Source of the DNA: a virus
Lineage: Duplodnaviria; Caudoviricetes
Length of the DNA: 64,000 nt
Strand: one strand, 5' to 3'
Virus record (IMG/VR): IMGVR_UViG_2851870198_000001
Location: 1 to 64,000 of that record
In this document: positions 42,201 to 56,125 of the stretch, piece by piece
Layout of the letters: the number at the start of each line of letters is the position of its first letter
Numbering within the stretch: position 1 is the first letter of the stretch
Notes under the pieces: model-generated
The model's input: only the letters and a program-made list of their open reading frames with translations
What the model was told of the DNA's origin: nothing
Database searches by the model: none
Made by a program: the position numbers and the translations under genes

Positions 42201-45200
42201 TTCGCCGCGTACGCGTTCGCGGTCGACGCGGTGAGGTTCTTCGCGTACTCGCCGCGAGCCTGAGCCTCACGGGCTTCCGCAGCCACCGACCGGTTGAAGG
42301 CCAGATACACGATCTTCTTGCCCGGCATGCGGTGGCTGAGCATCTTGAGCGTGGACGACTTGCCCGTGCCCGCGAGCGCCATCACCGCCATGTTCAGGCC
42401 GCGGCGGGCAGCGCCCTCGATGATGATGTTCTGCTCTTCGGTCGGCGGGTACGACTCGCGCGCCGAGGCCTCGGCGGAGATCCGCGCCCACTCCTCATCG
42501 GAGTAGCCGTGCTCCTTCGCCGCGGGCAGGTCTTCCACCCGCTCGACCAGGCCGACGGCCTCCGCGTCGTTCAGCCCGTACCCGGACAGGCGGTCGCGGA
42601 TAACGTCACCGCGGTCCCGCTCCTTCACCTTCCCGTCGTCGTCGTACTCCGGGGTCGGCTTCCAGCGGCGCCGCTCGGCGTCTTCGAGCTCGAACTTCCG
42701 CTTCTCCAGCCGGAAGCGGTAGGCCAGATCCACCGAGTCGGTCGCATCGCGCAGCGCCTCGATCCGGTCGTGGAGGTCATCGACCTCGTCCGCGATCTCC
42801 TCGTCGGTCATGTCGGCCGGCGACGTGCCCGCCACGGGGCGACTGTCCGACGGCGCGGACCGCGGCCGCTCCGCACGCTCAGGGACAGGCGAGGGGGCGG
42901 CCGGGGCCGGCTGGGGGTCCGGGGCGGCGACGGGACGCTCCTCGTTGCCCGCCGAGGTGGCAGGCGGATCGTCCTGGAACTCGCCGTCGCGGGTGCGGCC
43001 GACCACGTCGATGTACTCGACTTCCCGCTCGTCCCCGTTGCGCCCCCGCAGGATGGCCGAGTCGGGACCGGCCGAGCGGAGGAACTCGCCGCGCTGCTCG
43101 GCATTGAAGGCGCTGCGGTTCCAGAAGTGCACGGTGTCGCCGGGCTGGAAGTCGCCGCCCTCCCACGCCCGACCAGCCGACGGCGCAGCCGCCGGGCGGG
43201 TGTCGGGCTCGCTGGGCTGCGAGGTCTGGGAAGCGTCAGCCTCCGGGGCCGGGGCCGGGGCCGGGGACAGGCCGAGGCTCTCGCGGAGCGCAGCGTCGGC
43301 CTGCTGCTCGGCACGGTCGCGCTGCTCGTCCTCGCGACGGCGCTTCTCCACCGTCACCGCGTGCCGGGCAAGGTAGTCGTCCACCACCCGCATGAAGCGG
43401 GCCAGCGGCTCGGCGTCGACATCCGAGGGCAGCTCGTCGCGGAGACGCTGGGCGTGCTCGTGGGCCTCGGCGAGGCCGCCGGTGGCGTCATCGAAGTCGC
43501 CGGCCTCCTGGGCGGCGATGGCGTCGAACACCGCCGTACGCAGTGCCCGGGCGCTGCCAGGCTCCTCGCCGCGGCCGTAGGCGGCTTCCACAGCCCGGGT
43601 GATCTCACCCTGGGCCGCCTCGACACCCGCGAGGGCCTGCCGCCATTCACGGTCGTTGGCGAACGGGCGCACCGCGGGCTGCTGCCGTTCGCGGTTCCGC
43701 GGGGCCCGCTCGCGGGCCGGGGACGGCTGCGCGGCCGCGGGAGTCTCCTCCGGCTGCGGCTGGGCAGCCTGGCTGTTGTCCGCGGACTCGCCGGTGCTGG
43801 AGGCCTCACGCTCCGGGGCCTGCGCCGGCTGCTCGGGAGCAGCAGACTCGTCGGTCTGCGTCTCCGGCGCCTCAGACGCTTCGCTTTCGTCGTCCTCCGG
43901 CTCCTGGGGAGCAGTGGACTCGTCGGTCTCCGGCGCCTCGGGTGCTTCCGGCGCTTCGGTCTGCGGCGGCTCCGACGGGCGGGTGTCGCTGTCGGTGGCC
44001 GTCTCCGGGGCGTCCGTGCTGGTGTCCTCGGCCGTCGGCTCCGCGGTGCTCGCGGTCCCGACGTCACCCGCCGGGTTCTGGCCCTGCTTGCGGGCCTTGC
44101 GCCGGGTGCGGCGCTTCTGCTCGCGCTGCAGGCCGGCGTGACGCAGGATGTCCGCCTCGCTGGCCTCTTCGCGGGCTATCAGCCCGCCCAGCCGCTCGAC
44201 CTCCGACGTCAGCTCGGACTCGTTCATGGTGAGCGCGTCCGGCTGCGAGGGGGCGTTCGTCTGCCGCTGCTGGAACCGGGCCTCGAACTCCGCCCGCTTC
44301 GCAGCGAGCTTCTTGTCCCGCTCCGCGTCCCGGGCCTCGGTCGTCGGCCAGATGAAACGCACCTGGCCCTTGTCGTCCTGCGTGATCGACGGCGGGGCCG
44401 GGGTCTTCGGCGTCAGGTCGAGGTCCCGGGCGGAGACCTGCGCGAGAACGTCCTCTTCCTCCTCGCCGACCAGGGCGCGCATCTCCGCGTCGAGGGCGTC
44501 GATGGACGCCTTCTGCTGGGCGGCCGCGGCCTCCGTGCTCTGCGGCTGCGCCTTGAGACGCATCACCTCGTTGAGGATCTCGAGCTGGCGGTTGGCCTTC
44601 TCGAACTCCTCAGCGAGCTCGAAGGGCTTGCCCACGCGGACGGACGCCTGCTCGGCCGCCCGCCGCTTGTCGCTGAGCATGTCCTCCTGCCGGCGGACCT
44701 GCGCCTCCAGGTTGGCGATGGAGTCCTCGACGCGCTGCAACGGGATCCGCGGCGGCTTGCCGTCCACGTCGACCAGCTGGTGCGCCTCGTAGGTGCGGGC
44801 GCTGCCGGGGACGGCGGGGAGCTCCAGGCGCACGCCGTTGTCGTAGCGGCTGGCGTAGGAGTTCCAGGCCCGCGAGAACTTGGCGGCGATGTCGAGTCCG
44901 CCGACCTGGCCGATGATCTTCGGCGGCTCGTCGGGGTCGTACGCGCGGCGCCGGCCGTCCGCCTCGACCGCCCGCAGGGCCGCGGACAGTGCCTTGCGTG
45001 CCTCCTCGCGGCCCTCGGTCCCCGCGAAGTCGGTGCGGCCGATGCGGGCGTTGAAGTCCTCACCGCGGGTCGGCTTCCGCTTGGCGATGGCGTCCTGGAG
45101 GGTCGCCACGAGCTTCGTCGTCTGCTCCTCGGCGAGCTCCGCATCGCGGATGGCCCGCTGGAAGCCCTCCTGAGAACGCTGGTGGGCGTTGTACCGGGAC

Positions 45201-48200
45201 CGCAGCCGCTTCACGATCGGGCGGAGCTGCGCCTGAGCGATCAGGTGCGGGTCACCCGCGACCAGGGCGCTCGCCTCGTCGGCGTCGAACTTGACCTCGC
45301 CGATGTCCTCCACGACACGCTCGTTGAGCGAGCCGCGCATGAGCTGCCGGATGAACCGCGCCTTGCGGGCGATGGCCTCCCAGAACTTGGCGTCGGTGGA
45401 CCGCTCGGTGGCGTACTGGAAGATCGCGACCTCGGCGTTGGCGTTGCCCTGCCGGATGACACGCCCGTTGCGCTGCTCGACGTCGGCCGGCCGCCACGGA
45501 GCATCCACGTGGTGCAGCGCCGTCGCGCGGAGCTGCACGTTCGTGCCGGTGCCCATCTTGGCCGTGGAGCCGAGGAGCACGGACACCTTGCCGGTACGGG
45601 CCTCGTGGAACAGGCGCGCCTTGGCGGCGTCGTCCTTCGCCTCGTGGATGAACCGGATCTTCTCCGAGGGGATACCGCGCGCGATGAGGAGCTGCTTGAG
45701 CTCGTCATAGGTGGAGAAGTCGGTGTAGCCCTCGCCGTCCTCGCCCGTCGGGTCGGCGGCGTCCTCACCGTCGCCGGCCTTCTTCTTCCGCTTCTTCGTC
45801 TTGCCCGGGTCCTTCGGCGTGCCGAGGTCGAGGAAGACGATCTGCAGGCCGCCCTTCTCAGGATGCGGCGTGGGGTCGGTCTTGCTGGTCGGGTACTCGG
45901 CGTCCTTGGTCTGCTCGTGAATCCGGACGATGTTGTCCGCGACCGTCGGGAGCTTGTTGCCGCCGCCCATCTCGGGGTCGATGAGCCGCGGGTCGAGCGC
46001 GGCCATACGGCCGTCACCGAGGAGCTTGAGGTGGTTGTCCTCCTTCGGGTCGACGCGCCCGCCCGCCAGGCGGGCGGCGCGCGCCTTGATCTCCTCCTCG
46101 TAGGCTTCCTGCGCCTCCGACATCGGCATCGTGATCGTGACGGCCTTGCCGCCGGCGATGTCCGGGACGGGCAGGTCGAGGTCTTCGCTGGTCTTGACGT
46201 CGGCGAAGGCCCGCCACATCCGCAGGAGCTCCGGCACGTTCTGGAACGCCGCCAGGCGCACCTTCTCCGTGTAGGAGCCGTCCGCGCCGCGCTCCACGGC
46301 GCTGACCATCTGCCCGAACGTGGACGCGAAGTCGTCGAAGTCCATCAGGCCGAGCTGCTCAAGCAGGTCGGGGCGCAGGTAGCGCATCATCGTGTGGACT
46401 TCTGCGATGGAGTTGGCGACCGGCGTCGCCGTCGCGAACGTCACCACACGGCCGGTGGTGGACCGCTCGCGCAGCCACTCCAGCTTCATTTCCAGGTCGG
46501 AGGCCCGGTTCGAACCGTCAATGGCCGCGATGGACGACGGCGTGTCGAGGTTCTTGTACATGTGGGCTTCGTCTACGACGACGTAGTCGATGCCCATGTC
46601 CTCGAAGTGGAGGCCAGCGGCGTCCTTCATCCCGCTGAGCTTCTTGTCCAGCTTCTCCCGCAGGGTCTTGAGCTGGGTCTCCATCCGCTTGACCAGGCGG
46701 GTGTCGTTGTCCTCCCCGTCGATGGCCTTCTGCGCCTCGATCTTGGCTTCCAGGCGTTCCAGGCGGCGCCGGATGTAGGTCTCCTGCACCTCCGGACGCA
46801 TCTGGATCGACTCGAACGCGGTCTGCGTCATGATGATCGCGTCGTAGTCGCCGGCCGCAGCCCGGGCGATGAACTCGCGCCGGCCCTTGCCCGCAAGGTC
46901 GTCGCTGCTCGCGGTGAGGATCCGGTTGTTCGCCACGGACTCGGGGAAGATCTCCGCGAACTCCTGACGGAACTGATCCAGCATGTGGCCGGGCACGACG
47001 AGCGCGGCCTTCTTGACCAGGCCCAGGCGCCGGAGCTCCATGACGCCCATCGCCATCTCGGCGGTCTTACCGGCGCCGACCTCGTGGGCCAGGAGCACCG
47101 ACGGCTCATTGACCATCCGGGCGACGGCGGCGTGCTGGTGGGGGTGCGGCTTGAACCACTCGACCAGGCCCGGGATGGTGCGGCGCTGCCCGTCGTAGGA
47201 GCGGGGCGCCATCGAGTTGAACTGGTCGTTGTAGAGCCGCTTGTACTTCTCGGCGCGGTCCGGGTCGGCCCACAGCCAGTCTGTGAACGCCTCCTTGAGG
47301 AGTTCCGCCTTGGTCTTGGCGTCCTCGGTGGCCTTCGGGTCGAAAATCGAACCGTCGCGGGTCTTGACCGTGACGACGATCTTGCGGTTGGTGAGGATTG
47401 CCTCGGCGAGCTTGATCGCGTCGTAGCCGGGGGCGCTCCATGTGTCGCGGGTGCGGAAGGCGACGGCCTTCTTCACGGAGTCCGGGGCGTCGACCGCCCA
47501 CAGGGATCCGCCCTGCCAGGACACCTTGATCTGGTCGGTGCCGAGGGTTTCCCGAAGGAACTGCTGGACGGGTTCGTGCCCGAGCCAGGAGGCGCCCATC
47601 GGCGCGGCGATCTCACCGGTGGACAGGTCCGGCGGGATGACCCGCTCAAGGTGCTCGACGTTGATGTCGAAGGCGGGGTTCTCCGCCGCGGCCTCGCGGG
47701 CGGCGGTCAGCTTCTCGCGGACGTTGCCCGACAGGTAGTCGGCCGCCATGACGAGCTTGCCGTCCGGCGCCTGGAACGCCAGCGGGTACTCCACGCCGGT
47801 GTCCGGGTCGACCGACCGGGCGGCGAGGAGCTGGGCGACGGCGTCCTCGGCGTCGGTGTCCATGACCCGGGCCAGGCCGTCAGCGGTCAGCTGACCCTCG
47901 CGCTCCATGACGATCGCGAGGGCGTCCTGCGGGCTGTCCGCGAACTCGGCGATCTCCCGGTAGGTGCCCTGCCGCTTGGTGAAGATCGCGGCCCGCGTCG
48001 TCTTCTTGGTGATGTCGTCGTACTCGTCCAGCGGCGAGATGTTCGCCATCGTCGGGTCCTTGGTGAACAGACCCGCCCGCTGCGCCTTCTTGCGGTACTT
48101 CTTCTTGACCGTCTCCCCGGTCTCGGGGTCGGTGGCGGTGCGCTCGGCCCACGTGTACCGGTTGATCGCGCCGTACTTGTCGAAGTACGCCTGGTACTGC

Positions 48201-51200
48201 TCGTTCAGCTCGGCCCGCAGACGCTCGATCAGCGAGTCGTCGGCGTCCTTGCGGGACTCCTCCGCCAGCAGCGACTGGAAGGTGTCCCGGATCGCCAGCA
48301 GCCGGCGTCCCTCGTCCGCCTGCGTCTTCGGCACGGGGAAGGGGTGCACCATGCCGTCGCGGACCTGCGTGAACGTTCCGTCAGGCTCGGCCTGCACGTG
48401 CCCGTCCACACGGTCCGAGCCTGGCGGCAGCAGCGTGACCTTCTTCCGGTCCGCCGGGGCGGCCTGGTAGCCCAGGCCGGCGTCCTTCGCCGCGGCGACC
48501 GTCCGCTTGAGCGTCCGCGCGAGGTTGGCGATGGTGTCGCCGTCGCCGTCCACGCGGAGCTCGTTATCACGGTGCAGGCCGTGCCCGACGGCGAGCTTCC
48601 CGAGGACCTGCTCGGGGTGGTCGTGGAAGTAGGAGTTGTAGAAGACCGGCTGTGCACCCTCGGTCTCCGGGTCCGCCTGCCCGGGCAGACCGAAGCGGGG
48701 CAGGGAGTGCACCCACATCGGCGGGTCGTCCTTGCCACGCTCCGACGGCCGCTTGATCTCGCCCTTGCGGTTGCGGCCCGAATTGAACGCCTTGTCCTTG
48801 TCGCGGCGCCGGAAGATCAGCAGGTCGGTCATCACGCTCGTACCGGCGGTGCGCTGGTGCGCGCCGGACGGCAGACGGATCGCGCCGACGAGCTCGGCCT
48901 TCTCCGCCATCTCCATACGGGCGGCCTCGGCCTTCCCGCCGTGACCGTCCATCGTCAGAGCCGAGGTGACCACGGCGACCAGGCCGCCGCCGCGGGTCAG
49001 GTCCAGGCTCTTGAGGATGAAGTGGTTGTGGATCGAGTGGCCGCCCTTGTTGTGCACCAGGTCAGGCACCTTGTACCGGCCGAACGGCACGTTGCCGATC
49101 GCCATGTCGAAGGTGCCGTTCGGGGCACGGGTCTCACCGAACGACTCGTGACGGATCTCCGAGTGCGGGTAGAGCGCACCCGCGATACGGGCGGTGATCG
49201 GGTCGACCTCGACGCCGGTCATCTGCGCACCGTCGGGGGCGTAGCCGATGAAGTTGCCGATGCCCGAGCCGGGCTCCAGCACCTCACCGTTCTCGAACCC
49301 GAGGTCACGGACCGCGGCCCACACCTGCTGGACGATCTGCGGGTCGGTGTAGTGGGCGTTCAGCGTGTTCGAGCGGGCGTCTTCCCACTCGGCATCGGTG
49401 AGGAGCTCCCGCAGCCGCTCCGCGAGCGGCGCGAACTGGGCGTCGGGGCGGGGCTTGAAGATCTGCGGGACGGCACCCCACCCGGAGTAGCGGGCGAGCT
49501 CGGCCTGTTCGTCCGCGGTCGGCGGGCGGTCCTCGTCCTGCAGCCGGTGCAGGATCTCGATGGCCGCGATGTTGGCCTTGGCGCGGTTCAGCGGGGAGGA
49601 CGGGGCGAGCGTCGCCCCGTCGGCCGGCGGCTCGAACGCCGGGACGGCGCCGTTGCGGACCCTCTGCAGCCACTTGGCGGCCGTGCTGGAGGGCGTCGGG
49701 GCCGCCGGCCCCGTGTCGTCGTCCCCTACAGAGGCGGCAACGCCACCGGCGGCATGTCCTTCATCTCCGTCCCCGGCTCCTTCTCCACGCCGTACACCAT
49801 CTCGTGCAGCACCCGCTCGCGAGCCCGCATCCGCACCGACTTCAGCTCGTGCGCCCGCTCCACCACGTCCGTCCCCTCCCGAAGGGGCGGCGCCCACTCG
49901 TCCGTCAGCGCCTCGATTTCCTCGAGAATCTCCTCCGACCGCTGCCGGGCGAACTCCTCCAGCTCCGCGTTGCTGGCCATCGCCGCCACCTCGCTGGGCC
50001 GGTACGTTTTCCAGAACGTCCGGACGAGATCCTCGTACACCGCTGTTCCTCTCGTTGTGGTCGGCCAGGGCCTTGCGTGCGGCGCTGACGTTGTCGCGCG
50101 CCAGCCGCATCAGCTTCTGGACATACATGTTGTCGCGGCCCTCAAGACCGCGGGTCGCGCGCTGGATGGCATCCAGCGCCCGCTGGAACTCCTCGATCGC
50201 CTCGGACGGGGTCGACTCGCCCCGCTCGAAACGCTCCGCTGCCTCGGCAGAACCGTAGGCGAGCTCCCGGGCGGCCTCATCACCGTGCAGCCGCCCCAGG
50301 TCGTTGATGACGGGCAGGAGCGTGTTCTGCGCCTCCTGCAGCGCCTCGTTGATCTGCTGCTGCAGGGCGGTCTCCGCCGCCATCTTCGCGAGGTCGCGCT
50401 CCTCGGCGCGGGCCGCACGGTCGGCTTCCTCCCGGGCCGCCTGCGCCTTCTCCTCGTCCCGCTCGTGTACCAGGCCCGCGATGGCCGCCTCACGGGACAG
50501 GAACGTCCGCTCGGAGCTGTAGCGGGTGCCGTGGCCGAGCCGGTTCCACTTCCACATACCCCGGCCGCCCTGAAGGGTGGCGTTGTCCGAGCTGTCGCCG
50601 TCGATGGTGACGGGGATGTGGCCCCAGTCGTTGACCGATCCGAGCGCGACGCGGGACAACTGCGCCGAGTACGTCTCGGCGTCGCGGCGTTCGGCCTCCT
50701 CGATGATCTTCCCGCCCTCGACCTCATGGCGGTCGCTCTCTGCGGCGTCGTCGGTCTTCACGGCGGCCCGGACCGCAGCGTCGTAGGCGGCGTCAAGGTC
50801 TTCGCGCGGGACCGTGGACCAGTCCCGGCGCTCCGGCTGGGCCTGCGGCGTCTGCTGCTGCGGGCGCTCCTCCGGTGCAGCCGGGGCCGGGGCGGCTCCC
50901 TGGGCGGGGGCGTTGCCGCTCTGCTGCTGGGTGTCCCGCTCCGCCTGCCGCTTGCGGTACTCCTGCGCCCAGTACGTGTCTTCACGCCCGGCGTCGATCT
51001 CGTACTGGCCGCGGATGTCGTCCATCAGCAGGCCGAAGTCGCGCTTCCATCCGCTGATGCGGGAGGGGTGGCGCTTGTACAGCTCCGGGTCCCACCAGTC
51101 GATCGGCTGACCCGGGCGGCCGGGCTCTTCGAGCTCCGCGCCGAGCCGCATCGCGAACCGGTCGGCGTCGTCCAGCGTCTTGAACTGGCCGCCGGCACCC

Positions 51201-53320
51201 CCGGCGTAGCCGAGCGAGCGGCCGTCGTAGGCGCGGACCACCTCGAAGTCGCTGGGGCCCATCTGGATGACCGCGAACCCGCGGTGATCCGACATGGTGA
51301 TCTTCCAGCCCTCACGGCCGGCGTACGCGCGCAGGCGGTCCCGGGTGCGGTCATCGAGCGCCGGGTCGCCACCGTTCTTCCAGTAGTCCCGCAGCTGACC
51401 GGTGGTGCTCGGCTTCTTGAAGCCGTCGCCGTTGTCGTCGTTGCTGGACGGTCCGACGTGGCCGACACCGATGTTGGCCGCGGGCACGCCCGTGGTCTGG
51501 GCGAGCTGCTGGGCGGCCTGCACGAGCGGGTTCGGCCGCTCGGCCGGAGCCGCAGCTGGAGCAGCCGGGGCGGTGGGGGTGGCGGGGGTGCGCTTCTCGG
51601 CGGCGCCCTGCTTCTTCTTCGCGGCCTTCTCGGCGAACGCCTTCTTCGCGTCCTCGCCGGCCTGCCGCACCATCTTCTGGCCCTCGGGGGACTCAAGGCG
51701 CTGGTGGTAGCCGGGGCTGTCCCAGTCGAACGGCGTGCCGTCGATCTGTGCGACTTCCAGGCGGTTGGCGAACTCCATCGCCTCGCCCTTGCGTTCCGAC
51801 ATGGCCAGGCGGGCGCCGCTGCCGGAGACGATGACGGCATAGCCGGTCTTGGGCTTGCCGCCCTTCTCCACGGTCATCTTCGCGACGACGAACGTACCCC
51901 GGCGGGAGAGCTGCGGCTTGTCCAACTTGGCGAACAGGCCGGCGGTTTCCTTCTGGTGGCGCTGCTGTGCGGCCTTGTCGCTGGTGGCCGGCTCCAGGTT
52001 GCCGGTCTGCCAGTGCTGCTGCAGCGTGTTCAGGTTGGCGAACCGCTTGCCGCCCTTGTTTCGGGCCTTGGGTGTGGCTGCGGCGGGCTGGCCCGACGTG
52101 GACTCGGGCTTCATGCGGTAGGAGGTGCTGGCGGTGCCGTCCGAGCGCCACGCGCGCGGGACGAGCGGCTGATCCTTCCTCCGCTTCTTCGACGGCTTCG
52201 GGATCGGCTTCTTGCCGTGCGCCTGGAACCGGCGGTACGCGAGGTTCAGCGCGTCGGCGAGGTTCTGGGCGTAGCGGGTGACGTCTTCCTTGCCGTCCTG
52301 CTCGGCGAGCTCGGCCAGGCGCTCGGCGTCGTCTGCGAACCACGAGAGCCGGTCGAACTCCGTCGGGTCGGCCTGATCGGTCGGGCTGTCGGCGAGGTCG
52401 AACGGCTCCCCGCCACCGAGGTAGTCGGCCAGCTCGTTGTAGACGTCGTCTGCCTCGCTGTTGCCCCACTCGCCGGGCCAGGCGTTTTCCAGGTCCTCGA
52501 AGTAGTCGTTCGACAGGTCACGCAGGGCGCGGCGGGCGTGGTTGCTGTCCCAGAACTGCAGGTAGTGCTTGTTCACCTCGGGGCCGTCGGCGCGCAGCGC
52601 GTCACCGTTGCCCATGACGTGCCGACGGCGGCGGCTCTCCGGGCCGGCGCCCCCGTTGTCCGTCGTGATGGGCAGCAGATCGGGGAAGTCACGCAGCGGG
52701 TGGTTGCCGCGGTCCTGCGCGGAGCGGCCGGGGTCCTCGTCGCTGTCGTCCGGGCGGGACATGACGCGGCCCTGCGGGACCATCGGCTCGTCATCGTCGT
52801 CTTCGGGGTCGTCCGGGTCGGCGCCGAGGTCCACCCCGTCGACGTCGTCCCCGATCGGGTTGCCCTCGTCGTCCTGGTCGTGCGGGTCGTCGGGGGTCTG
52901 GCCGTTGTCACCGGGGTCGGTCGCCGGGTGTTCGTCGGTGTCGGGGTCGTCGTCCTTGTCGGGGGCGTGCTCGCCGTAGCCCAGGCCGCGGTTCTGGTCG
53001 CCGTAGCGCCGCTCGTCCTCGTCGCGGACCTTGCGCTTGCTCTTGGTCGGCGCCGAGCCGTCGGGGCGCGCGACCATGGTGAGCCGGGAGGCGTGGATGG
53101 TGGACCGCTTGCGCGTGGCCACGTTCTCCACCAGCACGTTCCGGCCGCCGAGGGAGCGCAGGACACGCGCCATGCCGCCGCCCCAGAGCCGCGCGATGCC
53201 GCCGGTCTCGATGAACCGGCCCTTGCTGTCGCGGGGGTGCAGGTCCGGGTTCCAGGGGCGGCGCAGCCTCTTGGTTTCGAGGCTGGCGATGATGAGGTCT
53301 GCGGCGCTCGTGATCGGCAT
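30248..53320 (-). CDS. Giant DarB-like polyvalent protein (~7,690 aa): N6-adenine MTase, SNF2 helicase, UvrD-like helicase, repeats, degenerate zincin
   Basis: MTase EPGSGIGNF (~49260) and GNVPF (~49085). SNF2 AHEVGAGKT (~47075), DEAH (46562-46573), QRNGRVIRQGN (~45460). SF1 ALAGTGKS (~42365), DEAQD, GDSNQAIYGFRGA, QSFRFG, TAHKSKGLE, YVALTRA (~40695). ATG 53320 preferred over 53332 from promoter spacing. Confidence 0.9.
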   Translation of the reverse strand: MPITSAADLIIASLETKRLRRPWNPDLHPRDSKGRFIETGGIARLWGGGMARVLRSLGGRNVLVENVATRKRSTIHASRLTMVARPDGSAPTKSKRKVRDEDERRYGDQNRGLGYGEHAPDKDDDPDTDEHPATDPGDNGQTPDDPHDQDDEGNPIGDDVDGVDLGADPDDPEDDDDEPMVPQGRVMSRPDDSDEDPGRSAQDRGNHPLRDFPDLLPITTDNGGAGPESRRRRHVMGNGDALRADGPEVNKHYLQFWDSNHARRALRDLSNDYFEDLENAWPGEWGNSEADDVYNELADYLGGGEPFDLADSPTDQADPTEFDRLSWFADDAERLAELAEQDGKEDVTRYAQNLADALNLAYRRFQAHGKKPIPKPSKKRRKDQPLVPRAWRSDGTASTSYRMKPESTSGQPAAATPKARNKGGKRFANLNTLQQHWQTGNLEPATSDKAAQQRHQKETAGLFAKLDKPQLSRRGTFVVAKMTVEKGGKPKTGYAVIVSGSGARLAMSERKGEAMEFANRLEVAQIDGTPFDWDSPGYHQRLESPEGQKMVRQAGEDAKKAFAEKAAKKKQGAAEKRTPATPTAPAAPAAAPAERPNPLVQAAQQLAQTTGVPAANIGVGHVGPSSNDDNGDGFKKPSTTGQLRDYWKNGGDPALDDRTRDRLRAYAGREGWKITMSDHRGFAVIQMGPSDFEVVRAYDGRSLGYAGGAGGQFKTLDDADRFAMRLGAELEEPGRPGQPIDWWDPELYKRHPSRISGWKRDFGLLMDDIRGQYEIDAGREDTYWAQEYRKRQAERDTQQQSGNAPAQGAAPAPAAPEERPQQQTPQAQPERRDWSTVPREDLDAAYDAAVRAAVKTDDAAESDRHEVEGGKIIEEAERRDAETYSAQLSRVALGSVNDWGHIPVTIDGDSSDNATLQGGRGMWKWNRLGHGTRYSSERTFLSREAAIAGLVHERDEEKAQAAREEADRAARAEERDLAKMAAETALQQQINEALQEAQNTLLPVINDLGRLHGDEAARELAYGSAEAAERFERGESTPSEAIEEFQRALDAIQRATRGLEGRDNMYVQKLMRLARDNVSAARKALADHNERNSGVRGSRPDVLENVPAQRGGGDGQQRGAGGVRPAAVGGDSRGNRGADGRVGAAPSGGDGRGGAGARAEVGADAGSRAGAARDGVRRGEGAGDGDEGHAAGGVAASVGDDDTGPAAPTPSSTAAKWLQRVRNGAVPAFEPPADGATLAPSSPLNRAKANIAAIEILHRLQDEDRPPTADEQAELARYSGWGAVPQIFKPRPDAQFAPLAERLRELLTDAEWEDARSNTLNAHYTDPQIVQQVWAAVRDLGFENGEVLEPGSGIGNFIGYAPDGAQMTGVEVDPITARIAGALYPHSEIRHESFGETRAPNGTFDMAIGNVPFGRYKVPDLVHNKGGHSIHNHFILKSLDLTRGGGLVAVVTSALTMDGHGGKAEAARMEMAEKAELVGAIRLPSGAHQRTAGTSVMTDLLIFRRRDKDKAFNSGRNRKGEIKRPSERGKDDPPMWVHSLPRFGLPGQADPETEGAQPVFYNSYFHDHPEQVLGKLAVGHGLHRDNELRVDGDGDTIANLARTLKRTVAAAKDAGLGYQAAPADRKKVTLLPPGSDRVDGHVQAEPDGTFTQVRDGMVHPFPVPKTQADEGRRLLAIRDTFQSLLAEESRKDADDSLIERLRAELNEQYQAYFDKYGAINRYTWAERTATDPETGETVKKKYRKKAQRAGLFTKDPTMANISPLDEYDDITKKTTRAAIFTKRQGTYREIAEFADSPQDALAIVMEREGQLTADGLARVMDTDAEDAVAQLLAARSVDPDTGVEYPLAFQAPDGKLVMAADYLSGNVREKLTAAREAAAENPAFDINVEHLERVIPPDLSTGEIAAPMGASWLGHEPVQQFLRETLGTDQIKVSWQGGSLWAVDAPDSVKKAVAFRTRDTWSAPGYDAIKLAEAILTNRKIVVTVKTRDGSIFDPKATEDAKTKAELLKEAFTDWLWADPDRAEKYKRLYNDQFNSMAPRSYDGQRRTIPGLVEWFKPHPHQHAAVARMVNEPSVLLAHEVGAGKTAEMAMGVMELRRLGLVKKAALVVPGHMLDQFRQEFAEIFPESVANNRILTASSDDLAGKGRREFIARAAAGDYDAIIMTQTAFESIQMRPEVQETYIRRRLERLEAKIEAQKAIDGEDNDTRLVKRMETQLKTLREKLDKKLSGMKDAAGLHFEDMGIDYVVVDEAHMYKNLDTPSSIAAIDGSNRASDLEMKLEWLRERSTTGRVVTFATATPVANSIAEVHTMMRYLRPDLLEQLGLMDFDDFASTFGQMVSAVERGADGSYTEKVRLAAFQNVPELLRMWRAFADVKTSEDLDLPVPDIAGGKAVTITMPMSEAQEAYEEEIKARAARLAGGRVDPKEDNHLKLLGDGRMAALDPRLIDPEMGGGNKLPTVADNIVRIHEQTKDAEYPTSKTDPTPHPEKGGLQIVFLDLGTPKDPGKTKKRKKKAGDGEDAADPTGEDGEGYTDFSTYDELKQLLIARGIPSEKIRFIHEAKDDAAKARLFHEARTGKVSVLLGSTAKMGTGTNVQLRATALHHVDAPWRPADVEQRNGRVIRQGNANAEVAIFQYATERSTDAKFWEAIARKARFIRQLMRGSLNERVVEDIGEVKFDADEASALVAGDPHLIAQAQLRPIVKRLRSRYNAHQRSQEGFQRAIRDAELAEEQTTKLVATLQDAIAKRKPTRGEDFNARIGRTDFAGTEGREEARKALSAALRAVEADGRRRAYDPDEPPKIIGQVGGLDIAAKFSRAWNSYASRYDNGVRLELPAVPGSARTYEAHQLVDVDGKPPRIPLQRVEDSIANLEAQVRRQEDMLSDKRRAAEQASVRVGKPFELAEEFEKANRQLEILNEVMRLKAQPQSTEAAAAQQKASIDALDAEMRALVGEEEEDVLAQVSARDLDLTPKTPAPPSITQDDKGQVRFIWPTTEARDAERDKKLAAKRAEFEARFQQRQTNAPSQPDALTMNESELTSEVERLGGLIAREEASEADILRHAGLQREQKRRTRRKARKQGQNPAGDVGTASTAEPTAEDTSTDAPETATDSDTRPSEPPQTEAPEAPEAPETDESTAPQEPEDDESEASEAPETQTDESAAPEQPAQAPEREASSTGESADNSQAAQPQPEETPAAAQPSPARERAPRNRERQQPAVRPFANDREWRQALAGVEAAQGEITRAVEAAYGRGEEPGSARALRTAVFDAIAAQEAGDFDDATGGLAEAHEHAQRLRDELPSDVDAEPLARFMRVVDDYLARHAVTVEKRRREDEQRDRAEQQADAALRESLGLSPAPAPAPEADASQTSQPSEPDTRPAAAPSAGRAWEGGDFQPGDTVHFWNRSAFNAEQRGEFLRSAGPDSAILRGRNGDEREVEYIDVVGRTRDGEFQDDPPATSAGNEERPVAAPDPQPAPAAPSPVPERAERPRSAPSDSRPVAGTSPADMTDEEIADEVDDLHDRIEALRDATDSVDLAYRFRLEKRKFELEDAERRRWKPTPEYDDDGKVKERDRGDVIRDRLSGYGLNDAEAVGLVERVEDLPAAKEHGYSDEEWARISAEASARESYPPTEEQNIIIEGAARRGLNMAVMALAGTGKSSTLKMLSHRMPGKKIVYLAFNRSVAAEAREAQARGEYAKNLTASTANAYAAKVADKRLNNRLPSNRRNGFKKLSAQQIADRMRWYDTVKAGNRDLSPGGAATVAERMIREWAKSADAEMLPKHITGAKSAQERRDLFNAVKPLADRMWDNLTDPTRGDPDEDLTMDFDYIVKMWALGGYKLDADTLFWDEAQDVNPVMEGVVRGALAQGVQVVAVGDSNQAIYGFRGAADALGKLPVDARATLTQSFRFGPAVADAGNRFLRLLGTRMRLKGFDRKQSRLDTIKPGDETMVIARTNAGVALAAVEALSAGRRVAVSGGVKDLQEFVQAARALANGERTDHAELARFNGMAFDDILEAVKGDPDLQQLKSLFDLLEKHADDIDKLLESGAQRAETENVGGRVWVNLDWNDPKVDQLKRWLGDGKNNGVGKLLYDPATRRYFYEPGKRDVPWKNERSGRSGVHKVDNKLSLEEAQQKIDAHLAKLYPQEDSEGGRLVDEKREHDVLVTTAHKSKGLESERVRIADDFRGPEYNEHGNIKWETIPDDEALRVAYVALTRATDVLDAGSLGWVFQATREDDPTLPPNGDYRRDWVLDEFNVGDRIDFQEEDGTPNVGTVDRIDAPGMYVRYEVDGQDREQWIGPAQVLRLNGQGRPQLPVASDEELDRALAEGRYEPVSTTPAPSADTAPDPAPSPSADAPETAAGRQWGVDDWVVTPNGEGRVIVSDGDKVIVLDGGGAPRTYEPRQLSMPGEARTAEHDAPTAKEAARQEKRQRDSEAAQSPEGLQLFYGSRLANLNLDEGHGQVLDEDGNVVGWVRRRGSVWLGQDARGGTAQGSTAESASDPLHGPREAAQQIDGGLGDSHMRLPLQDTSWRHLRPEEGRDEIQYSEFSDAQREQFFKLIKGWEKSSDSELSQAAQGWSRGLNYQQMERIAAAFTAAADDVDTSTPEGRREQAVLNRAADKVRAQARRAWLNWQTMPPPGEPDVVGNYDNPEWVPYGHRGDAGRSGAPAPTAAGDGADAPAAASRYGGDMVPASEIREGDWVSVDQDDIFGRGPGRIVGKVTGVRVYDGRVTFDVSAKRPKSEKGTFGEHAIVGLGDLVERLPEGNPGREDTSDLARRLEEHEGEQRARRKRVPEGWTAVEDPMSIEMRPGDRFRVRDLLEHGTRGRQMYKEVVVRGSEPVRFDSDGIALWGDELNPSVLFRQHNIVAVPEDRVARSGGQNAPAVPSAAAEGTRERAGEFDGKPLELGEPTVVPHSSLPDRADMSETRRAVYLDGERIGSLQTSGGPASRGWVGAHHDVHGSLGWFQPSDGEVTGTATAVSNPAEAAALAVAEANDSPMLGFPGDTTGRADGIKRWAGVWAEPQPAGVRNAYLDRVLAHHSPDWLGSVDPERVRLWLRTAVAVDPLAQYDENTRRNLAEAPPEARQYLAGLAADLRSSVQQTGEELRLDLRRVLVDHIATEKGREKARELAGEMFKDRTGKIRTAVREQIARARAGAAEHGLSEQQAEDFIVNVVGGDNPDQVALGVRGAYPEAMRPLHAAKSDADAYWSAFAGWARREDSGRWHGQYWDNGRRTTLGAPPAPFADAQAGSGVVKVGEAELPKGMRWARGSDLRQGDIFHAAQSRQPGDDTFNGLEPPSYVIHTHRGGREGDVRSVTLDSDHGQTHVKPDQWVVIVEDPEPAVRKKARSRARTDTFTQWEVPVDDETYELGGPDRVSALAARAELTPIAKDKFDREAEWTVSVDGVEIGRIENDREKVLLYHSETSDGQRRTWHGQELAKAGLVAAHDAATGRGEQDDDRPAQTDERDRRDGRREDNDDQRAPKREREGREGGSGGGGEPPNGGDAPQRPGDDDSGQDSGRQGDGDQEGREDDDRRRRRNRSGNDRPRPEGAGGGPDLPRPRVPHMPDIDSDAPDDGPDGGASRSGDGSGQDNDAGRTLDRAAAARRFGSADRMRDLARQAVAVDDLGPAGSYDEVWMGGRLIGHAIHTTGGSWAPYSKFTRDPHPDFQEREGAVAELVRLAQEHGELPVDRLAPSTPFIGSVVSMPKEAPGRLDLTPEESERWRALSGLLEDLRAGRPASGNVADDISQAIDELDWVTGRYKPNRDEFWKPGADAANLRNLLNTIRPDNPRASHHQISKARAAWKALQALEESGSAGTATPIRDLRPGDVVRVMGKRPSWDINDTEYSGYLRGTPKRVTRTRDGQKERVWQLRLGSTPWDDNPDAQRVTPRHEMTVQVPADGTGSLLARADDVDMPTEDYVARSRATANAPDGTSTGGRTDGVGAGPAAPQGDIPRVPSTDEMREQYATGEKEIISAEGERVLFGSPERMRELAEEGTAPTPALQADQGEQVWRNGRFIGRLFAPHRFVNADNPEEVWWSQEPWDSRGINFSTREAAIANLVLRDKERGEPDLSVVPERLARGIALYDNGLAFNPDDEFRGYPSLEDNADDMRRYRGLRAHLAQLGRGESPSGNVADDLAHAHDELLWLDSTHYKEPESEQGKGHMVGPGSLARMLGDALNSLRPEDPRATHHQHRQDRAAKQFLDQLKADGGESRAVSVPVGELQPGDIVRLSGRITGLYPGATGDQIGYVVGKPARATITQNGKRTNARRIALSPSPRSQYGVGGSTFLIPADENVRRLMAAGDVRLPLDEHTYGRQLGETSRLDHPNGLDRAPGSSSAPDAGSPEPGQRDARAGGSATSQDREAPSGQAPARSEDTPVTGGAAAPSQGGAASRSGDAPARGTDASPTAAGSRSTGSGPQSGERTGTGTGGAPASRPQQSEAPAADTGTDEPPAPPEPVGGRPAEWVRVSDLGMGDLVRVDGTTKRGTTRTLAGYVVDGPREIQTTQGRKMQDKHRILISDTPDGAGSPVWVSPDAAAARATRDGDDTTVTEGSPRTGADSDVLTGRISGRVATDASGNGLFPGSLVTDSRGNDGVVVGANAATVQVRFGDDRTDDVQAPSSLNVTDGGAARPAGWTPDGHRVDVGHVVGDRDGNMLGTVEEVDGDTATVATPDGMTPMPVTGLRVLGGTADSSDQQPKVARVERVTAGDLREGDVMVRDGHPTKITGIERDEETTLIGSDDPDTGETDWQAVPNGTPVDRALDAQGGAPDLAPEDTPKPAEPITSHEPKPHVEPVTGPTVDPQLSPEERDAATDRSASATSDPDAEQAAARIGQDLPVTPQQASALADDLREGADPATPEGRAAKRAADHLDRAASPSGEAAGTTSDTAPEDVVIGGKRRAPNPLNPQINYIDGISREAWEQAKATYARSQTTNLGTPDWMFESMLKGIYGLKPDAIRDVLAHLKNGTEPAEFSRRAGTPDAGVSEGRPEPGTVGSVGEGDIIALPSEDNPDEMAAYRVVHIQEAAGGMRVLTVEDGDGIRSKRTLASGDALYQLPEPDVEPQAPTPTPAAGTDGSRNPNPAPNWDTVQNDYADAVARAVVDSAIEGTTIPGSIHALRQQIAEKVTTEALRDALQNLRRDLTAEVDLAGVTGDDRTRLLAGMRRAAAQARTAAVRAAVRTLDDLEPLDGETPEDTAKRAAELLRLIPESLRNRTEPSLNEGDGPAAGRVADEVSSHVSDAVTGALHDLDDGPLTPERRAQIVARLAGQMADSRDAAARRIAGHLPDSQMPGILAALVQIGRRVVELVAAFLKGLAAAAMSAARAVGRFVKGLARRVRSWPETRRLRRLQRSLPRPADGLSLAERMAHWGRLLPVPGRFGQVSRRARWYRRASRTALAAGQMPAVQDGMRWTADRAADRGPGAQALRHLAAVRAAGSDVDGEVIARLAAAAPELGDDPHGTVRHARRYAARADARLRDLQAAAAGGTPDLGPEIDAARLEAQHARQEAARLHDAYRAALPEAVRDALAEVREMGPAGRDRLTLSTGSDAEASRALVDASRYVPRDWLADRSAVFLTAVSGDAGGYDVDSGTATVADLGDGGRSTAAHALLAHLQQHYPDLQAAQETFGFVRTHTGRPGARRSSVDVLLERLFGGDQVVEDEIVARGLAAMFSGDWYRDDDLRAFLMGLLATR
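49726..50040 (-). CDS. Nested out-of-frame gene inside the giant CDS (104 aa; TnpV-like C-terminal motif)
   Basis: GAGAGGA RBS before the GTG; GC3 bias switches to this frame; helical protein ending RARERVLHEMVY; the host frame here is a G/R/A-rich shadow. Confidence 0.7.
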   Translation of the reverse strand: MYEDLVRTFWKTYRPSEVAAMASNAELEEFARQRSEEILEEIEALTDEWAPPLREGTDVVERAHELKSVRMRARERVLHEMVYGVEKEPGTEMKDMPPVALPPL

Positions 53321-53346
53321 GCGGCGGAACATGCATGCCGGGAGTG

Positions 53347-53362: not shown

Positions 53363-53394
53363 CGGATTTCCGGCGGTGAGGGACTGGGGCCGGG

Positions 53395-53613: not shown

Positions 53614-53656
53614 GGCCGTGCTCCTGACTGCGTGAAGGGGAAGGGGGCGGGGTGCG

Positions 53657-56125
53657 TCACTGGTCACCGCCCTGCTCGCGGGTGCGGTAGCGCAGCCGGC
53701 AGCGGCAGTTGATGGTGAGGTGGATGGGGGCGAGCTGATCGCCGGGGAACCGCATCGGGTAGCCGTCGACCTGGTACGGCTCGGCGACGGGCAGGGTGGT
53801 GCCGTCCACGGCTTCGTGGGCGGGCCGTACGCGGTCGTCGCGGCGGGTGACCCAGGTGCGGATGATGCCCGGGCCGATCGCCGCGGCGGTGGCCTCCGCG
53901 GAGCCGTTGACGGTGGCGACGGCCGCTGTCTCCGCGGCGTCGGTGATCTTCGTGGCGGCCATGTCGCGGAACGCGGTCCGCGCGAGCGCGACCAGGTCGT
54001 CAATGTCCTCGGTGACGTCCTGCCCTTGTGTGAGCAGGGTGGTGATCGTGTCGAGGAAGGCGCGGGCGATGTTCTCGGCGGCCGCCACGGCGTCCAGGAC
54101 CGCGGCCGTGATGCGGGGCGATGCCTCCGCCGGCAGGGGCACGCCGAAGGCGTCCGCGGTGCGCTGGGCGGTGGTGGCCGCGATCCGGGTGAGGGACCGG
54201 GCGAGCGCGCTGGTGACTTCCTCCAGCCACCGGTCGGTGCCGACGATGCGGTCGACGTCCAGCGGAGTGGTGCCGCCGCGGCTGTCCTGGGGGCTCTGCG
54301 GCCGCCAGAACCGGGTGCCCTTGCGGGCCTTGGGGGAGCGCAGGCGGGCGGTGATGACGCCCTCCTGCCGGTCGAACAGGGACTCCAGCGCCAGGGCTAC
54401 GGCGTCGCGGGCGCGGTCGAAGTCGGTGTCGGTGACCTCGAACTCCGGCCCGACGTGCGGGCTCTGGTGGGGGAGTGCCTTGGTCTGCAGGGTGCGGGCG
54501 TCCTCGACGGCGGCCGCGGCCGCGCCCGGCTCCGTCTCGGGCATCTCGCGGGCGTCGGCGACGGCGGCGGCCGCTTCACCCGGCGCCGAGGGGACGGCGT
54601 CCGCGCGGGCCTCGGCGACCGCGCCGGCCGCCGCGCCCCGTTCGGCGCCCATGGCGTCGGCAGGCGCTTCGCCGCCCTCGGCGCGGGCCTGCGCGACCGC
54701 TTCCGCCGCGGCGCCCTCCCCGGGTCCGGCCCCGGGGTCGAGCGGCGCGTTCGGATCGCCGCCGGCCCCGGGCATGGGACCGCCCATGCCCATGCCCATG
54801 CCGCCTTGGTCGCCCTGGATGCCGAGCGCGGCCGCGTCCTGCGGGCGCAGCGGAACGGGCGCCTTCTGCGGGGAGATCCACAGGGCGCGGGAGTGCGCGT
54901 TGTTGTAGGCGGGCAGGCCCGCGCGGCGCCGGTACTCGTCAATGGAGATCAGGCCCGCCTCGAACTCCTCGCGGGCCTCCTGGCGGCGCTTGCGGCGCGG
55001 CAGCTCCAGGGCCTGCACGGTGGACGTGTCGTAGCGGATGGACAGGTCGGCGCCGCCGAGGTCACCGGCGAACGCGTCAGCGATCAGCGACAGGTGGCCG
55101 AGCTCGGTGTGAATCCAGAACCCGTACTCTTCCTGCTCCGCGTTGTCGAAGGTGCGCCCGGAGGCGTTGCCGGTGACCGACTCGGGAACACCGAACGCGC
55201 CGAGAATCTCGATCTTCGCGTTCTGCGCGGCGTGCTCGTAGGCCATCTCACGCGGGCGGGTGGCGAGGTCGACGTACGTCATGCCGCCCTGCCCGGCGCC
55301 GACGACGGACACGTGCCCGGCGTACTCGGAGCCGGGCAGGAACCGTGCCTCCAGCCGGTCCATGTCCGCGTCGGTGAGCGAGCTGGTGTCGACGGCCACG
55401 ATCCCGCCCGGGCGCGCGTCGTTCTTGATGAACGCCACGTTGTACATGCGCGACAGGTGGTCGAGCTCGATGCTGATGCCGGCCGCTTCCAGCGGGGTCT
55501 GCCCGGAGAACGGATCGGTCGGGTGCGGCTCACGGATCCAGCGCACGCGTTCGGGTTCGAGCTCACGGACGTGCCCGTACAGGGTCGTGAACTCGAAGTG
55601 CTTGATGTACTCGCCCTTGTCGTCCGGCACGGGGATGACCCGGTCCGGGGGCAGCAGGTCGAGGCGGGTGATGGTGCCGCGGTTGGAGCGCGTGACCTCC
55701 AAGAACGCGCCGCGCTTGGACAGCAGGATCTGCGCGGACAGCCGCCGCCGAAGCTGCGCGCCGGACTCCAGCGGGTTCGCCTTCGGGCCGTTCAGCAGCC
55801 GCAGCAGCGGATGGTCGTCTATGACCTCCTCGAACTCGCCGTCTTCGGTGAGGCCGCGCCCGATCTGCAGGGGGAGCCGGGCGGCGTGCTTGCCCATGGT
55901 GTCGATGGCCTTGTAGACCCAGATGACACGCTCGTATCCCTCGGTGACGACACGGCCGATGTCCCAGCCGTCCGCGCGGCCTTCGGTGCCCCAGATGTTG
56001 GTGGTACCGGCGTAGGCGGTGGACGTGTACCCGCCCGTCCACGTGATCGTTTTCGACTCGTCCGGTTGGGGGCCCGGCGTCTGCAGCATGTTGCGCAGCG
56101 CGGGGAACCAGCGGCGTCGCGCCAT
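53657..56125 (-). CDS. HK97-type portal protein fused to a C-terminal MuF (gpF-like) domain
   Basis: Portal motifs WVYKAIDTM, DHPLLRLLN, LLPPDRV, GQTPLEAA, EILGAFGVP; MuF motif RTWVTRRDDRVRPAHEAVDG...INCRC. Confidence 0.92.
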   Translation of the reverse strand: MARRRWFPALRNMLQTPGPQPDESKTITWTGGYTSTAYAGTTNIWGTEGRADGWDIGRVVTEGYERVIWVYKAIDTMGKHAARLPLQIGRGLTEDGEFEEVIDDHPLLRLLNGPKANPLESGAQLRRRLSAQILLSKRGAFLEVTRSNRGTITRLDLLPPDRVIPVPDDKGEYIKHFEFTTLYGHVRELEPERVRWIREPHPTDPFSGQTPLEAAGISIELDHLSRMYNVAFIKNDARPGGIVAVDTSSLTDADMDRLEARFLPGSEYAGHVSVVGAGQGGMTYVDLATRPREMAYEHAAQNAKIEILGAFGVPESVTGNASGRTFDNAEQEEYGFWIHTELGHLSLIADAFAGDLGGADLSIRYDTSTVQALELPRRKRRQEAREEFEAGLISIDEYRRRAGLPAYNNAHSRALWISPQKAPVPLRPQDAAALGIQGDQGGMGMGMGGPMPGAGGDPNAPLDPGAGPGEGAAAEAVAQARAEGGEAPADAMGAERGAAAGAVAEARADAVPSAPGEAAAAVADAREMPETEPGAAAAAVEDARTLQTKALPHQSPHVGPEFEVTDTDFDRARDAVALALESLFDRQEGVITARLRSPKARKGTRFWRPQSPQDSRGGTTPLDVDRIVGTDRWLEEVTSALARSLTRIAATTAQRTADAFGVPLPAEASPRITAAVLDAVAAAENIARAFLDTITTLLTQGQDVTEDIDDLVALARTAFRDMAATKITDAAETAAVATVNGSAEATAAAIGPGIIRTWVTRRDDRVRPAHEAVDGTTLPVAEPYQVDGYPMRFPGDQLAPIHLTINCRCRLRYRTREQGGDQ

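Follow-up and report, generated by a model that had tools for sequence, protein, structure and literature searches.

Giant polyvalent anti-restriction genes are an existing focus of phage-defence research, and the function of the TnpV proteins has been unknown since the 1990s. The two subjects meet in the DNA analysed here, the first 64,000 positions (hereafter the window) of the IMG/VR virus record IMGVR_UViG_2851870198_000001, a 71% GC sequence of 125,903 bases in all with a completeness rating of 95%. In it a small gene with profile homology to TnpV (gene B) lies out of frame within a giant open reading frame (ORF) for a DarB-like polyvalent protein. Polyvalent proteins that combine an LPD36 domain (GxGU motif) with an adenine methylase and with an SNF2 helicase have been described, together with giant actinomycete versions that add a UvrD helicase (Iyer et al. 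2017, main text; PMC5512222). The giant gene of the window is like P1 DarB and the methylase-SNF2 “dyad” presented in the main text of that work (PMC5512222): it has the LPD36 GxGU motif, an NPP(F)-type adenine methylase, SNF2 and, as in the actinomycete giants, UvrD. It also adjoins a portal gene, as P1 darB does. A role in excision has been postulated for TnpV of Tn4451 (PMC3158075), and TnpV has been presented as a protein of unknown function, maybe in transfer (PMC12084326), in the passages of these two papers that deal with it. B shares with the TnpV of Tn4451/Tn4453 its small size, its helical character and its location on a mobile element; classical TnpV genes, however, are described as free-standing, and B is fully nested inside another ORF. 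We found no description in the literature of a TnpV gene nested in a methylase-helicase gene. The words TnpV, overlapping and frameshift are absent from the main text of PMC5512222, whose supplements might list such neighbours.

Genuine dual coding by B and the giant ORF is the explanation that we consider probable. The giant ORF is composed of a long N-terminal part (A), a linker that overlaps B and a conserved core (C) that opens with the LPD36-methylase region (Table 1). The initial annotation, made from the letters of the window, had proposed a complete 104-codon ORF out of frame with the giant gene, with a GAGAGGA ribosome-binding site and a GTG start, and all of these elements are present; the translation, with M at the GTG, is VYEDLVRTFWKTYRPSEV...RARERVLHEMVYG.... 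Stops occur in the +1 frame at giant codons 1073 and 1201, and none interrupts the giant frame. Over B, the GC content of third codon positions (GC3) is 0.93 in the B frame versus 0.40 in the giant frame. A frame-wise GC3 plot bore out the reported loss of bias of the giant frame, which reads there as G/R/A-rich filler: its GC3 is 0.82-1.00 on the flanks and 0.38-0.46 over giant residues ~1090-1170, versus 0.90-0.96 in the +1 frame over the same residues. This is the only such frame switch across the 7694 codons, the other flagged segments having a giant-frame GC3 of at least 0.72. The Shine-Dalgarno site of B is unpaired in the centroid fold, nothing unusual was seen in the RNA structure at the B start (one fold, z 0.16), and neither a sigma-70-like promoter nor an intrinsic terminator was found in 49300-50800. 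Both frames are open and the embedded one has start signals of its own, which is what dual coding calls for.

Related loci were gathered with an alignment of six B sequences (A2). They number 31, namely six Streptomyces plasmids, 12 IMG/VR contigs and 13 genome contigs, and extend to Kitasatospora, Actinacidiphila, a Kineosporiaceae metagenome-assembled genome and, at 31% identity, Nocardia. The same nesting is found in 28 of the 31. In these the giant frame opens 1.3-4.0 kb 5′ of B and stays open over all of the DNA retrieved 3′ of it (more than 6 kb). The exceptions are L003, in which the open frame starts at −106 and the Prokaryotic Genome Annotation Pipeline (PGAP) annotates B and the large gene separately, and two decayed chromosomal remnants. 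In one of these (L021, an Actinacidiphila soli contig) B is intact, the methylase ends after ~45 residues and stops separate part A; in the other (L027, a Streptomyces griseoflavus contig) only B residues 47-104 are left. GC3 tracks B in every locus, with 0.87-0.99 in its frame versus 0.36-0.48 in the giant frame in 30 of the 31, and 0.84 versus 0.68 in the partial remnant L027. All 30 full-length loci have an ATG or GTG 2-6 codons ahead of a conserved Tyr, with a purine-rich site of GGAGG or GAGAGGA type 5-9 nt before it, and in most of them the B frame is closed 42-78 nt 5′ of its start. That standard annotation would miss B had been foreseen: PGAP gives the giant coding sequence alone in five of the six Streptomyces plasmid relatives, and the sixth has both as separate genes.

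The nested layout is not an assembly artefact. Indels found on resequencing had been named as what would overturn the initial annotation, and independent assemblies keep the layout without gaps. An independent genome (L020, a Streptomyces pseudogriseolus contig) has the same layout at a synonymous distance (dS) of 0.06-0.08 from the window. Contigs of three further runs (two studies) differ from the window over 49300-50500 by substitutions and zero gaps: the X5 contig covers this whole segment with 30 substitutions, two X3 contigs have 4 and 27 substitutions, and the X7 pieces cover 21 of its 30 depth bins.

From the absence of a stop in the giant frame the initial annotation had concluded that both frames must be coding. 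The giant frame is indeed stop-free and both frames are maintained, but the inference as such fails, since a frame of this kind is open by chance about half of the time. Resampling of the synonymous codons of B left the giant frame free of stops in 47.5% of trials with the window sequence and in an average of 51% with the relatives. Of 497 control segments of 105 codons, taken from the methylase-helicase part of these genes, 230 have no stop in the equivalent frame. Stops are rare in the giant frame because its first codon position is the GC-rich third position of B. An open giant frame alone is weak evidence of dual coding. The significance of the locus comes instead from the GC3 switch, the homologues and the comparative data, and the case for both frames from comparative stop avoidance and selection, which are invisible from the window alone.

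Stop avoidance was analysed in 29 distinct B nucleotide sequences (the window and 30 loci, with two duplicates merged and L027 excluded). The giant frame is stop-free in all 29, for a null mean of 0.51 each and a product of 1e-10. T-ending codons of B are followed by an AA, AG or GA codon in none of 109 cases, 31 being expected (863 of 3031 positions are of that kind); in part C of the same genes 408 of 1909 T-ending codons (21%) have such a neighbour. Eleven distant loci of GC 0.47-0.70, described below, are all open as well (null probability of being open, P(open), 0.0017-0.43) and have 0 of 86 such codons for 25 expected, which brings the pooled count to 0 of 195. These comparisons indicate that giant-frame stops over B are actively avoided.

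Selection on the two frames, another check that had been suggested at the outset, was estimated by the Nei-Gojobori method (NG86) in 14 pairs of sequences, 13 of them close. The ratio of nonsynonymous to synonymous substitution (dN/dS, omega) is 0.05-0.85 in the B frame and lies below the giant-frame value in all 13 close pairs; the latter exceeds 1 in 10 of the 13. By this measure purifying selection acts on the B frame. The giant frame over B is predicted to be a disordered linker. Its residues are rich in G, R, A and D, and over 28 loci it averages 23% Gly, 86% G/S/P/R/D/E/A/Q/K/T and 12% hydrophobic residues, versus 27% hydrophobic in the first 500 residues of the core. AlphaFold2 modelling of giant residues 1000-1420 from a 20-sequence alignment returned a predicted local distance difference test score (pLDDT) of 26-33 (about 28) and no secondary structure at 1097-1215, between folded flanks, in agreement with the original picture of a complete small gene nested in a disordered linker just before the methylase. 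The few conserved columns of the linker probably shadow the conserved motifs of B, as judged by reading both translations side by side.

The search for homologues of B that had been recommended was run with HMMER over 1.84 billion representatives and retrieved 28 at E ≤ 1e-3, four of them at E ≤ 1e-10, mostly 85-124 amino acids (aa) long; three long matches consist of many short matched stretches and look low-complexity. An alignment of 23 family members (A1) has conserved motifs close to both ends. These motifs, W..[TH][YF].P on the N-terminal side and [LV][FY].[LP].EP on the C-terminal side, probably resemble those of TnpV. From A1, AlphaFold2 predicts a helical hairpin with an extended tail (pLDDT 96.8; helices 3-13, 15-20, 24-49 and 59-83). 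The isoelectric point (pI) of B is 4.75 and the family median 4.64, with a second median given as 4.27. The resemblance of the product to TnpV, noticed in the initial annotation, proved to be a profile homology: hhalign aligns A1 with A3, the alignment of an Arthrobacter family named “TnpV protein” by NCBI, at a probability of 99.25% (E 5.5e-20). The A1 profile also finds, at E 3.1e-9, the TnpV of a 47%-GC actinobacterial genome (L045), a protein that passes the cut-off of the Pfam TnpV family PF14198 (27.4 bits). B thus has profile homology to accepted TnpV members and, like these proteins of ~100-120 aa from mobile elements, is small (104 aa) and carried by a virus or phage-plasmid record. 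The sequence comparisons identify it as a distant member of the TnpV superfamily, though not by Pfam's own threshold.

The match of the window's B to PF14198 has E 0.0093 and places residues 7-82 on profile positions 31-111 of 111. PF14198 matches six of the 23 B-family members, every one below the cut-off, and the A3 family is sub-threshold too (5 of 17 members match, best E 1.3e-5). No match to B at E ≤ 1 was obtained by tblastn in deposited phage genomes, nor any meaningful one in PHROGs and NCBIfam. A sequence-profile search of the Protein Data Bank (PDB) with B gave at best E 0.61, and the B model gave at best an uninformative E 3.9 with Foldseek in the PDB and Z 5.7, within noise for helical models, in the VIA wide fold search. 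Scanning 301 Actinomycetota genomes with Pfam TnpV produced one sub-threshold match, which led to L045.

Eleven further Actinomycetota plasmid loci were examined, nine of which have a downstream helicase gene; Thermobifida pTH1 has a TnpV-like gene without a helicase, and one locus runs past the end of its record. In the nine helicase loci and in L003 the large gene is always in the −1 frame relative to B, including all seven in which the two are annotated as separate. In the same ten plasmids the open giant frame begins 70-373 nt 5′ of B (1276 nt in Micromonospora), contains an ATG or GTG in this leader and continues through the whole of B; null P(open) in the lower-GC plasmid loci is 0.003-0.43. 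The annotated starts of the large gene 3′ of B are mostly TTG or GTG. Five loci with a short leader (L033, L036, L037, L038 and L044) share a giant-frame N-terminal peptide 5′ of B, made of a basic patch followed by GQLS.(E/D).LW, and a weaker GQLS.E.LW peptide is seen in L042 and L043. The GQLS.(E/D).LW motif may resemble the beta-clamp-binding motif QL[SD]LF. We conclude from these sequences that the large ORF of these plasmids would begin upstream of B. The PGAP starts that place the large SNF2/helicase gene after the TnpV gene (L003, L033, L038 and L041-L044) are probably mis-annotated, because the open frame contains, upstream of that gene, an ATG or GTG and the codons of a conserved peptide. 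In L041, an Actinacidiphila glaucinigra linear plasmid, the TnpV-like gene is followed by an 8752-aa “UvrD-helicase domain-containing protein”, which exceeds the giant protein of the window.

The arrangement also occurs at lower GC. In the 47%-GC genome L045 a TnpV at Pfam threshold is nested in the +1 frame, preceded by a 140-aa N-terminal part and followed by the LPD36-methylase (null P(open) 0.0017, estimated from the usage of just 173 codons). A 4953-aa gene on a 57%-GC alphaproteobacterial plasmid has a TnpV-like ORF nested in its +1 frame at ~residue 1821, just before the LPD36-methylase (null P(open) 0.016). Comparing these low-GC and alphaproteobacterial B proteins with plasmids by tblastn yielded one match and one self match only. 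IMG/VR was scanned with an LPD36-methylase alignment (A4) and the best 80 of 386 relatives were inspected, 11 of the 80 being contigs already seen. With the actinomycete profiles alone, all matches among 648 upstream ORF segments (86, 315 and 247 per frame) are in the +1 frame. After one iteration a TnpV-like ORF is found within 1.5 kb 5′ of the LPD36-methylase in 48 of the 80, always in +1 and never in the other frames; the positives comprise 23 of 24 high-GC loci and 25 of 56 others (GC 0.30-0.70). The giant frame is open across the TnpV-like part in all 48. Other giant genes of this type, in which the initial annotation had advised a look for the same nested ORF, do carry it, both in the 28 related loci above and in these 48.

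Some loci of this survey depart from the common layout. The only high-GC LPD36-methylase locus without a TnpV-like ORF (L068, 66% GC) has a giant frame open for just 198 nt upstream. In L087, L113, L116, L119, L121 and L126 the TnpV-like ORF is 0.8-1.5 kb 5′ of LPD36, not adjoining and still in +1, and another domain seems to have been inserted between the two. The B profiles found no TnpV-like ORF in the first 50 kb of phage P1, which include darB and ulx. Ulx, considered as an equivalent of B, was dropped: ulx is downstream of darB and gave no profile match. A search for longer, fused forms of B gave two matches among 8000 scored candidates, both seemingly from frame-error contigs. In P0082, a 444-aa metagenome protein from ENA, B is in frame with the LPD36-methylase and out-of-frame text follows within the methylase; P0082 is probably the product of an indel-bearing contig rather than a natural fusion.

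The order of events supposed in the initial annotation, a linker later overprinted with a small gene, should probably be reversed. The B reading is probably the older one and the giant ORF reads through it, because B is a member of the TnpV family, its codon usage is adapted and purifying selection acts on it. An Arthrobacter plasmid carries a stand-alone gene for a 1696-aa SNF2-related protein 89 nt downstream of a “TnpV protein” gene, and this SNF2-related protein aligns from its residue 6 to giant residue ~1242 with 38% identity over 1729 columns (BLASTP); TnpV followed by a methylase-helicase is therefore an old module. The giant frame of the window has no ATG, GTG or TTG between the stop of B and the core, and its sole start codon from 10 codons past the B start to the core is a GTG at linker codon 48, within the overlap. 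In 12 of 28 loci there is no start codon anywhere in that interval. Lacking such codons, the core would be unable to start by itself. We infer an ancestor with TnpV at the extreme 5′ end of the methylase-helicase ORF, which in the short-leader plasmids already starts 25-45 codons upstream of B, and a later extension by the long part A.

Ribosomes that start at the giant initiation codon would read the linker, and other ribosomes would initiate at B's own Shine-Dalgarno sequence and GTG in the same mRNA. The giant frame over B would supply a stop-free, sequence-unconstrained, disordered G/A/R/D linker that joins A to the core, and the GTG of B would yield a 104-aa acidic helical protein from inside the giant mRNA. 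A number of points weigh against this reading or limit it. That both products are made is very probable, and the grounds for it are sequence comparisons. The loci are akin, so the probability products given above overstate their independence, with B identities that reach down to ~30%. NG86 was not designed for overlapping frames and its values are approximate here. The order of the two omega values is reversed in the saturated pair formed by the window and L002 (1.37 for B versus 0.82 for the giant frame), and in three pairs from the L002 clade omega is 0.46-0.85 in both frames (0.57-0.85 in the giant one). In that clade (L002, L012, L013 and L016) dS is 0.03-0.21 in B versus 0.17-0.86 in the flanks, and in the clade of the window the two are equal. 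This suggests an extra constraint on the B region of the L002 clade, from the linker sequence, RNA structure or recombination, and the description of the linker as unconstrained may not be valid everywhere. The window's B scores 16.4 bits, below the gathering cut-off of 27 of PF14198. Among the 25 lower-GC positives of the IMG/VR survey 16 were seeds, which match by construction, and nine were not. Profile searches detected no TnpV-like ORF in 32 of the 80 loci or in P1 darB, and a nested gene is therefore not obligatory for the LPD36-methylase module. Finally, to see in B a small acidic partner or chaperone of the giant protein is to go beyond the alignments, by analogy, and we propose it tentatively.

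Other explanations of the locus must be weighed against dual coding. It is very improbable that A, B and C are three ordinary genes and that the 7694-aa gene is an artefact of longest-ORF calling in DNA of 71% GC. The chance openness of the frame (0.475 in the window; 230 of 497 controls) and the separate PGAP annotation of B and C in some plasmids are in keeping with this, but A is without a stop codon, C is without a start between the stop of B and the conserved core, and A and C are in one frame in 28 of 31 loci. Avoidance of stops is, moreover, far above chance, also at 47% and 57% GC, and the starts annotated for C, mostly TTG or GTG after B, leave out a conserved C-frame peptide upstream of B. 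The chance that sequencing or assembly indels fake the frame switch, the true gene being either continuous with an in-frame B or split, is close to nil. The in-frame fusion of B to the LPD36-methylase in the metagenomic P0082 would speak for it, yet P0082 itself turns out of frame later in the methylase; in every locus the B frame has stops just before B and at its end, and the layout recurs in L020, in complete plasmids and in gap-free metagenome contigs. A decaying, unexpressed B, in a locus where the giant frame alone matters, is about as improbable as three ordinary genes. The two chromosomal remnants show that decay of the locus is possible, but B is intact in all 29 distinct sequences, down to a protein identity of 31% and further, its omega is below 1 and below that of the giant frame in the 13 close pairs, and codon usage follows B and not the giant frame.

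Two explanations accept B as a gene. According to one, B is made only or mainly by programmed frameshifting, a +1 shift giving a truncated A-B protein or a −1 shift from B giving B-C. The constant −1 position of C relative to B, also where the two are annotated as separate (7 of 7), suits this mechanism, as does the fixed ratio of products that it could provide. It is nevertheless improbable in view of the conserved Shine-Dalgarno sequence and start codon at the N-terminus of B in all 30 loci, the closure of the B frame 42-78 nt before that start in most of them, and a giant frame kept open upstream of B and throughout it, although a shift late in B would make no such demand. No canonical slippery heptamer was noticed by eye in the window, no formal scan having been made, and the RNA at the B start shows no significant structure (z 0.16). 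The other explanation makes B independent of the giant protein, as an acidic DNA-mimic anti-defence factor or a DNA-binding accessory of excision or transfer, nested for reasons of genome economy. The acidity of the family (median pI 4.64 and 4.27) is consistent with it, and the B model is weakly similar in structure to lambda GamS (Z 5.3, a score in the noise range of helical models). The predicted helical hairpin with extended tail differs from lambda Xis, which is a winged helix. The link to Xis is itself a postulate quoted in the relevant passage of PMC3158075. In favour of independence, TnpV homologues are also present without a methylase-helicase, in Tn4451-like elements and mobilizable integrated elements according to the corresponding passages of PMC3158075 and PMC12084326, and in Thermobifida pTH1. 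The +1 position before the LPD36-methylase is, however, kept across phyla and from GC 0.30 to 0.71, for which economy alone is a hard explanation, and we regard an independent B as unlikely.

The element looks like a phage-plasmid, because in its plasmid relatives from PLSDB the giant gene adjoins one for a “phage portal protein”; the relatives of the record are Streptomyces plasmids with phage portal genes. The features of the locus are listed in Table 1.

Table 1. Features of the dual-coding locus and its surroundings (window coordinates).
Feature	Coordinates	Strand	Basis
Nested gene B, 104 aa + TAG stop, GTG start, +1 frame of the giant ORF	49726..50040	-	ORF listing, translation
Shine-Dalgarno-like GAGAGGA, 6 nt before the GTG of B	50047..50053	-	Sequence
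Giant ORF, polyvalent DarB-like, 7694 aa	30248..53332	-	ORF listing; Pfam and PHROG domains; overall GC3 0.90
Part A, N-terminal, residues 1 to ~1096	50045..53332	-	Giant-frame GC3 >0.75 throughout
Linker, residues ~1097-1240, dual-coded with B	49613..50044	-	G/A/R/D-rich, predicted disordered, stop-free
LPD36-like helical domain (GWGA) and N6-adenine methylase (NVPFG), start of conserved core C	48554..49612	-	BLASTP, Pfam, PHROG
SNF2-type helicase module, giant residues 2065-2629	45446..47140	-	Pfam SNF2-rel_dom, ResIII and Helicase_C, all above cut-offs
UvrD-like superfamily I helicase module, giant residues ~3645-4219	40676..42400	-	Pfam AAA_19 and UvrD_C, both slightly below cut-off
Portal protein with MuF-like C-terminal part, directly upstream of the giant gene	53657..56125	-	phrog_2662 portal, E 2.4e-81

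From residue ~1240 onward the giant protein matches phrog_10089 (“DarB-like antirestriction”, E=0), and an N6-adenine methylase is fused in it to a SNF2-type helicase. The LPD36 GxGU motif of PMC5512222 is recognised, by motif and not by profile score, as SGWGA after a helical segment in the window and is invariant in A4, as is NVPFG; Pfam Eco57I methylase matches residues 1396-1482 with a score under its cut-off. The first 1097 residues (part A) have no match in Pfam or PHROGs. About the first 70 of them are conserved in 22 of 28 rows of relatives, mostly from loci of phage-plasmid type with a portal gene nearby. This conserved N-terminus (window ~53120-53332, minus strand; also in L002, L004 and L008-L031) has an HPRD..GRF-type motif, precedes a variable middle of 440-1320 aa and may act as a signal for capsid targeting. 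A short gap separates the giant gene from the portal-MuF gene, in which head-morphogenesis PHROGs match residues 633-818 of the product. The position after a portal-MuF gene is the usual place of capsid-packaged effector genes. The 5059-aa ORF antisense to the giant gene (38456-53635, plus strand) is a typical high-GC shadow ORF and no gene.

The nesting is kept even in plasmids whose leader has 25-45 codons, and the joining of A to the core is therefore probably not its sole purpose; a coupling of B to the large protein is more likely. The conserved adjoining position makes a functional link between B and the LPD36-methylase module likely, and B may be, as the initial annotation suggested, a small partner, chaperone or inhibitor of the MTase-helicase. 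As a partner, B would keep the giant protein, which may be delivered by capsid or conjugation, inactive or delivery-competent until capsid packaging or export, and nesting would force the joint inheritance and expression of the two genes. A bolder and rather doubtful extension is that TnpV proteins are an overlooked second subunit of DarB-type effectors, a small acidic chaperone, adaptor or gatekeeper, made from inside the effector mRNA, that would bind the nascent LPD36-methylase or the linker and be needed to silence the effector in the donor and to load it into capsids or type IV secretion channels. Nesting in +1, from 30%-GC phages to 71%-GC Streptomyces phage-plasmids, would then fix the ratio of the pair and make it inseparable. 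The components are of known kinds, and the conserved nested architecture appears to be new. To our knowledge, bacteria and phages very rarely have same-strand genes of ~100 codons that are both fully nested and conserved across phyla. If the interpretation is right, the TnpV family gains a concrete context and a testable partner, and hundreds of DarB-like genes are mis-annotated, with the nested gene absent or the start of the large gene misplaced. The locus would also be a clean natural case of a disordered linker born from the other-frame reading of an older gene, in which selection against stops can be measured. GC3 frame plots are able to expose real genes that longest-ORF annotation suppresses.

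A known counterpart is the spanin pair Rz/Rz1 of phage lambda, in which a complete gene with its own start is embedded, on the same strand and in the +1 frame, in a larger one, and both products serve one process. B is likewise embedded in +1 on the same strand with a start of its own. Rz1, however, is a lysis lipoprotein encoded within a small host gene; here the host gene codes for a giant effector, the embedded gene is probably the older of the two and the host reading over it is a predicted disordered linker. The comS gene of Bacillus subtilis, a lineage-restricted regulatory gene of 46 aa out of frame inside srfA, is similar in being a small out-of-frame gene within a giant multidomain gene that simple annotation overlooks, but B belongs to a family of ~100-aa proteins kept across phyla. 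VirE1, which is encoded beside its substrate VirE2, and the class I type III chaperones are small acidic proteins encoded next to the proteins they serve. B resembles VirE1-type chaperones by analogy, not membership: it has no sequence or fold similarity to the secretion chaperones, and like them it is small, acidic and encoded with a putatively delivered protein, in this case inside the gene of that protein.

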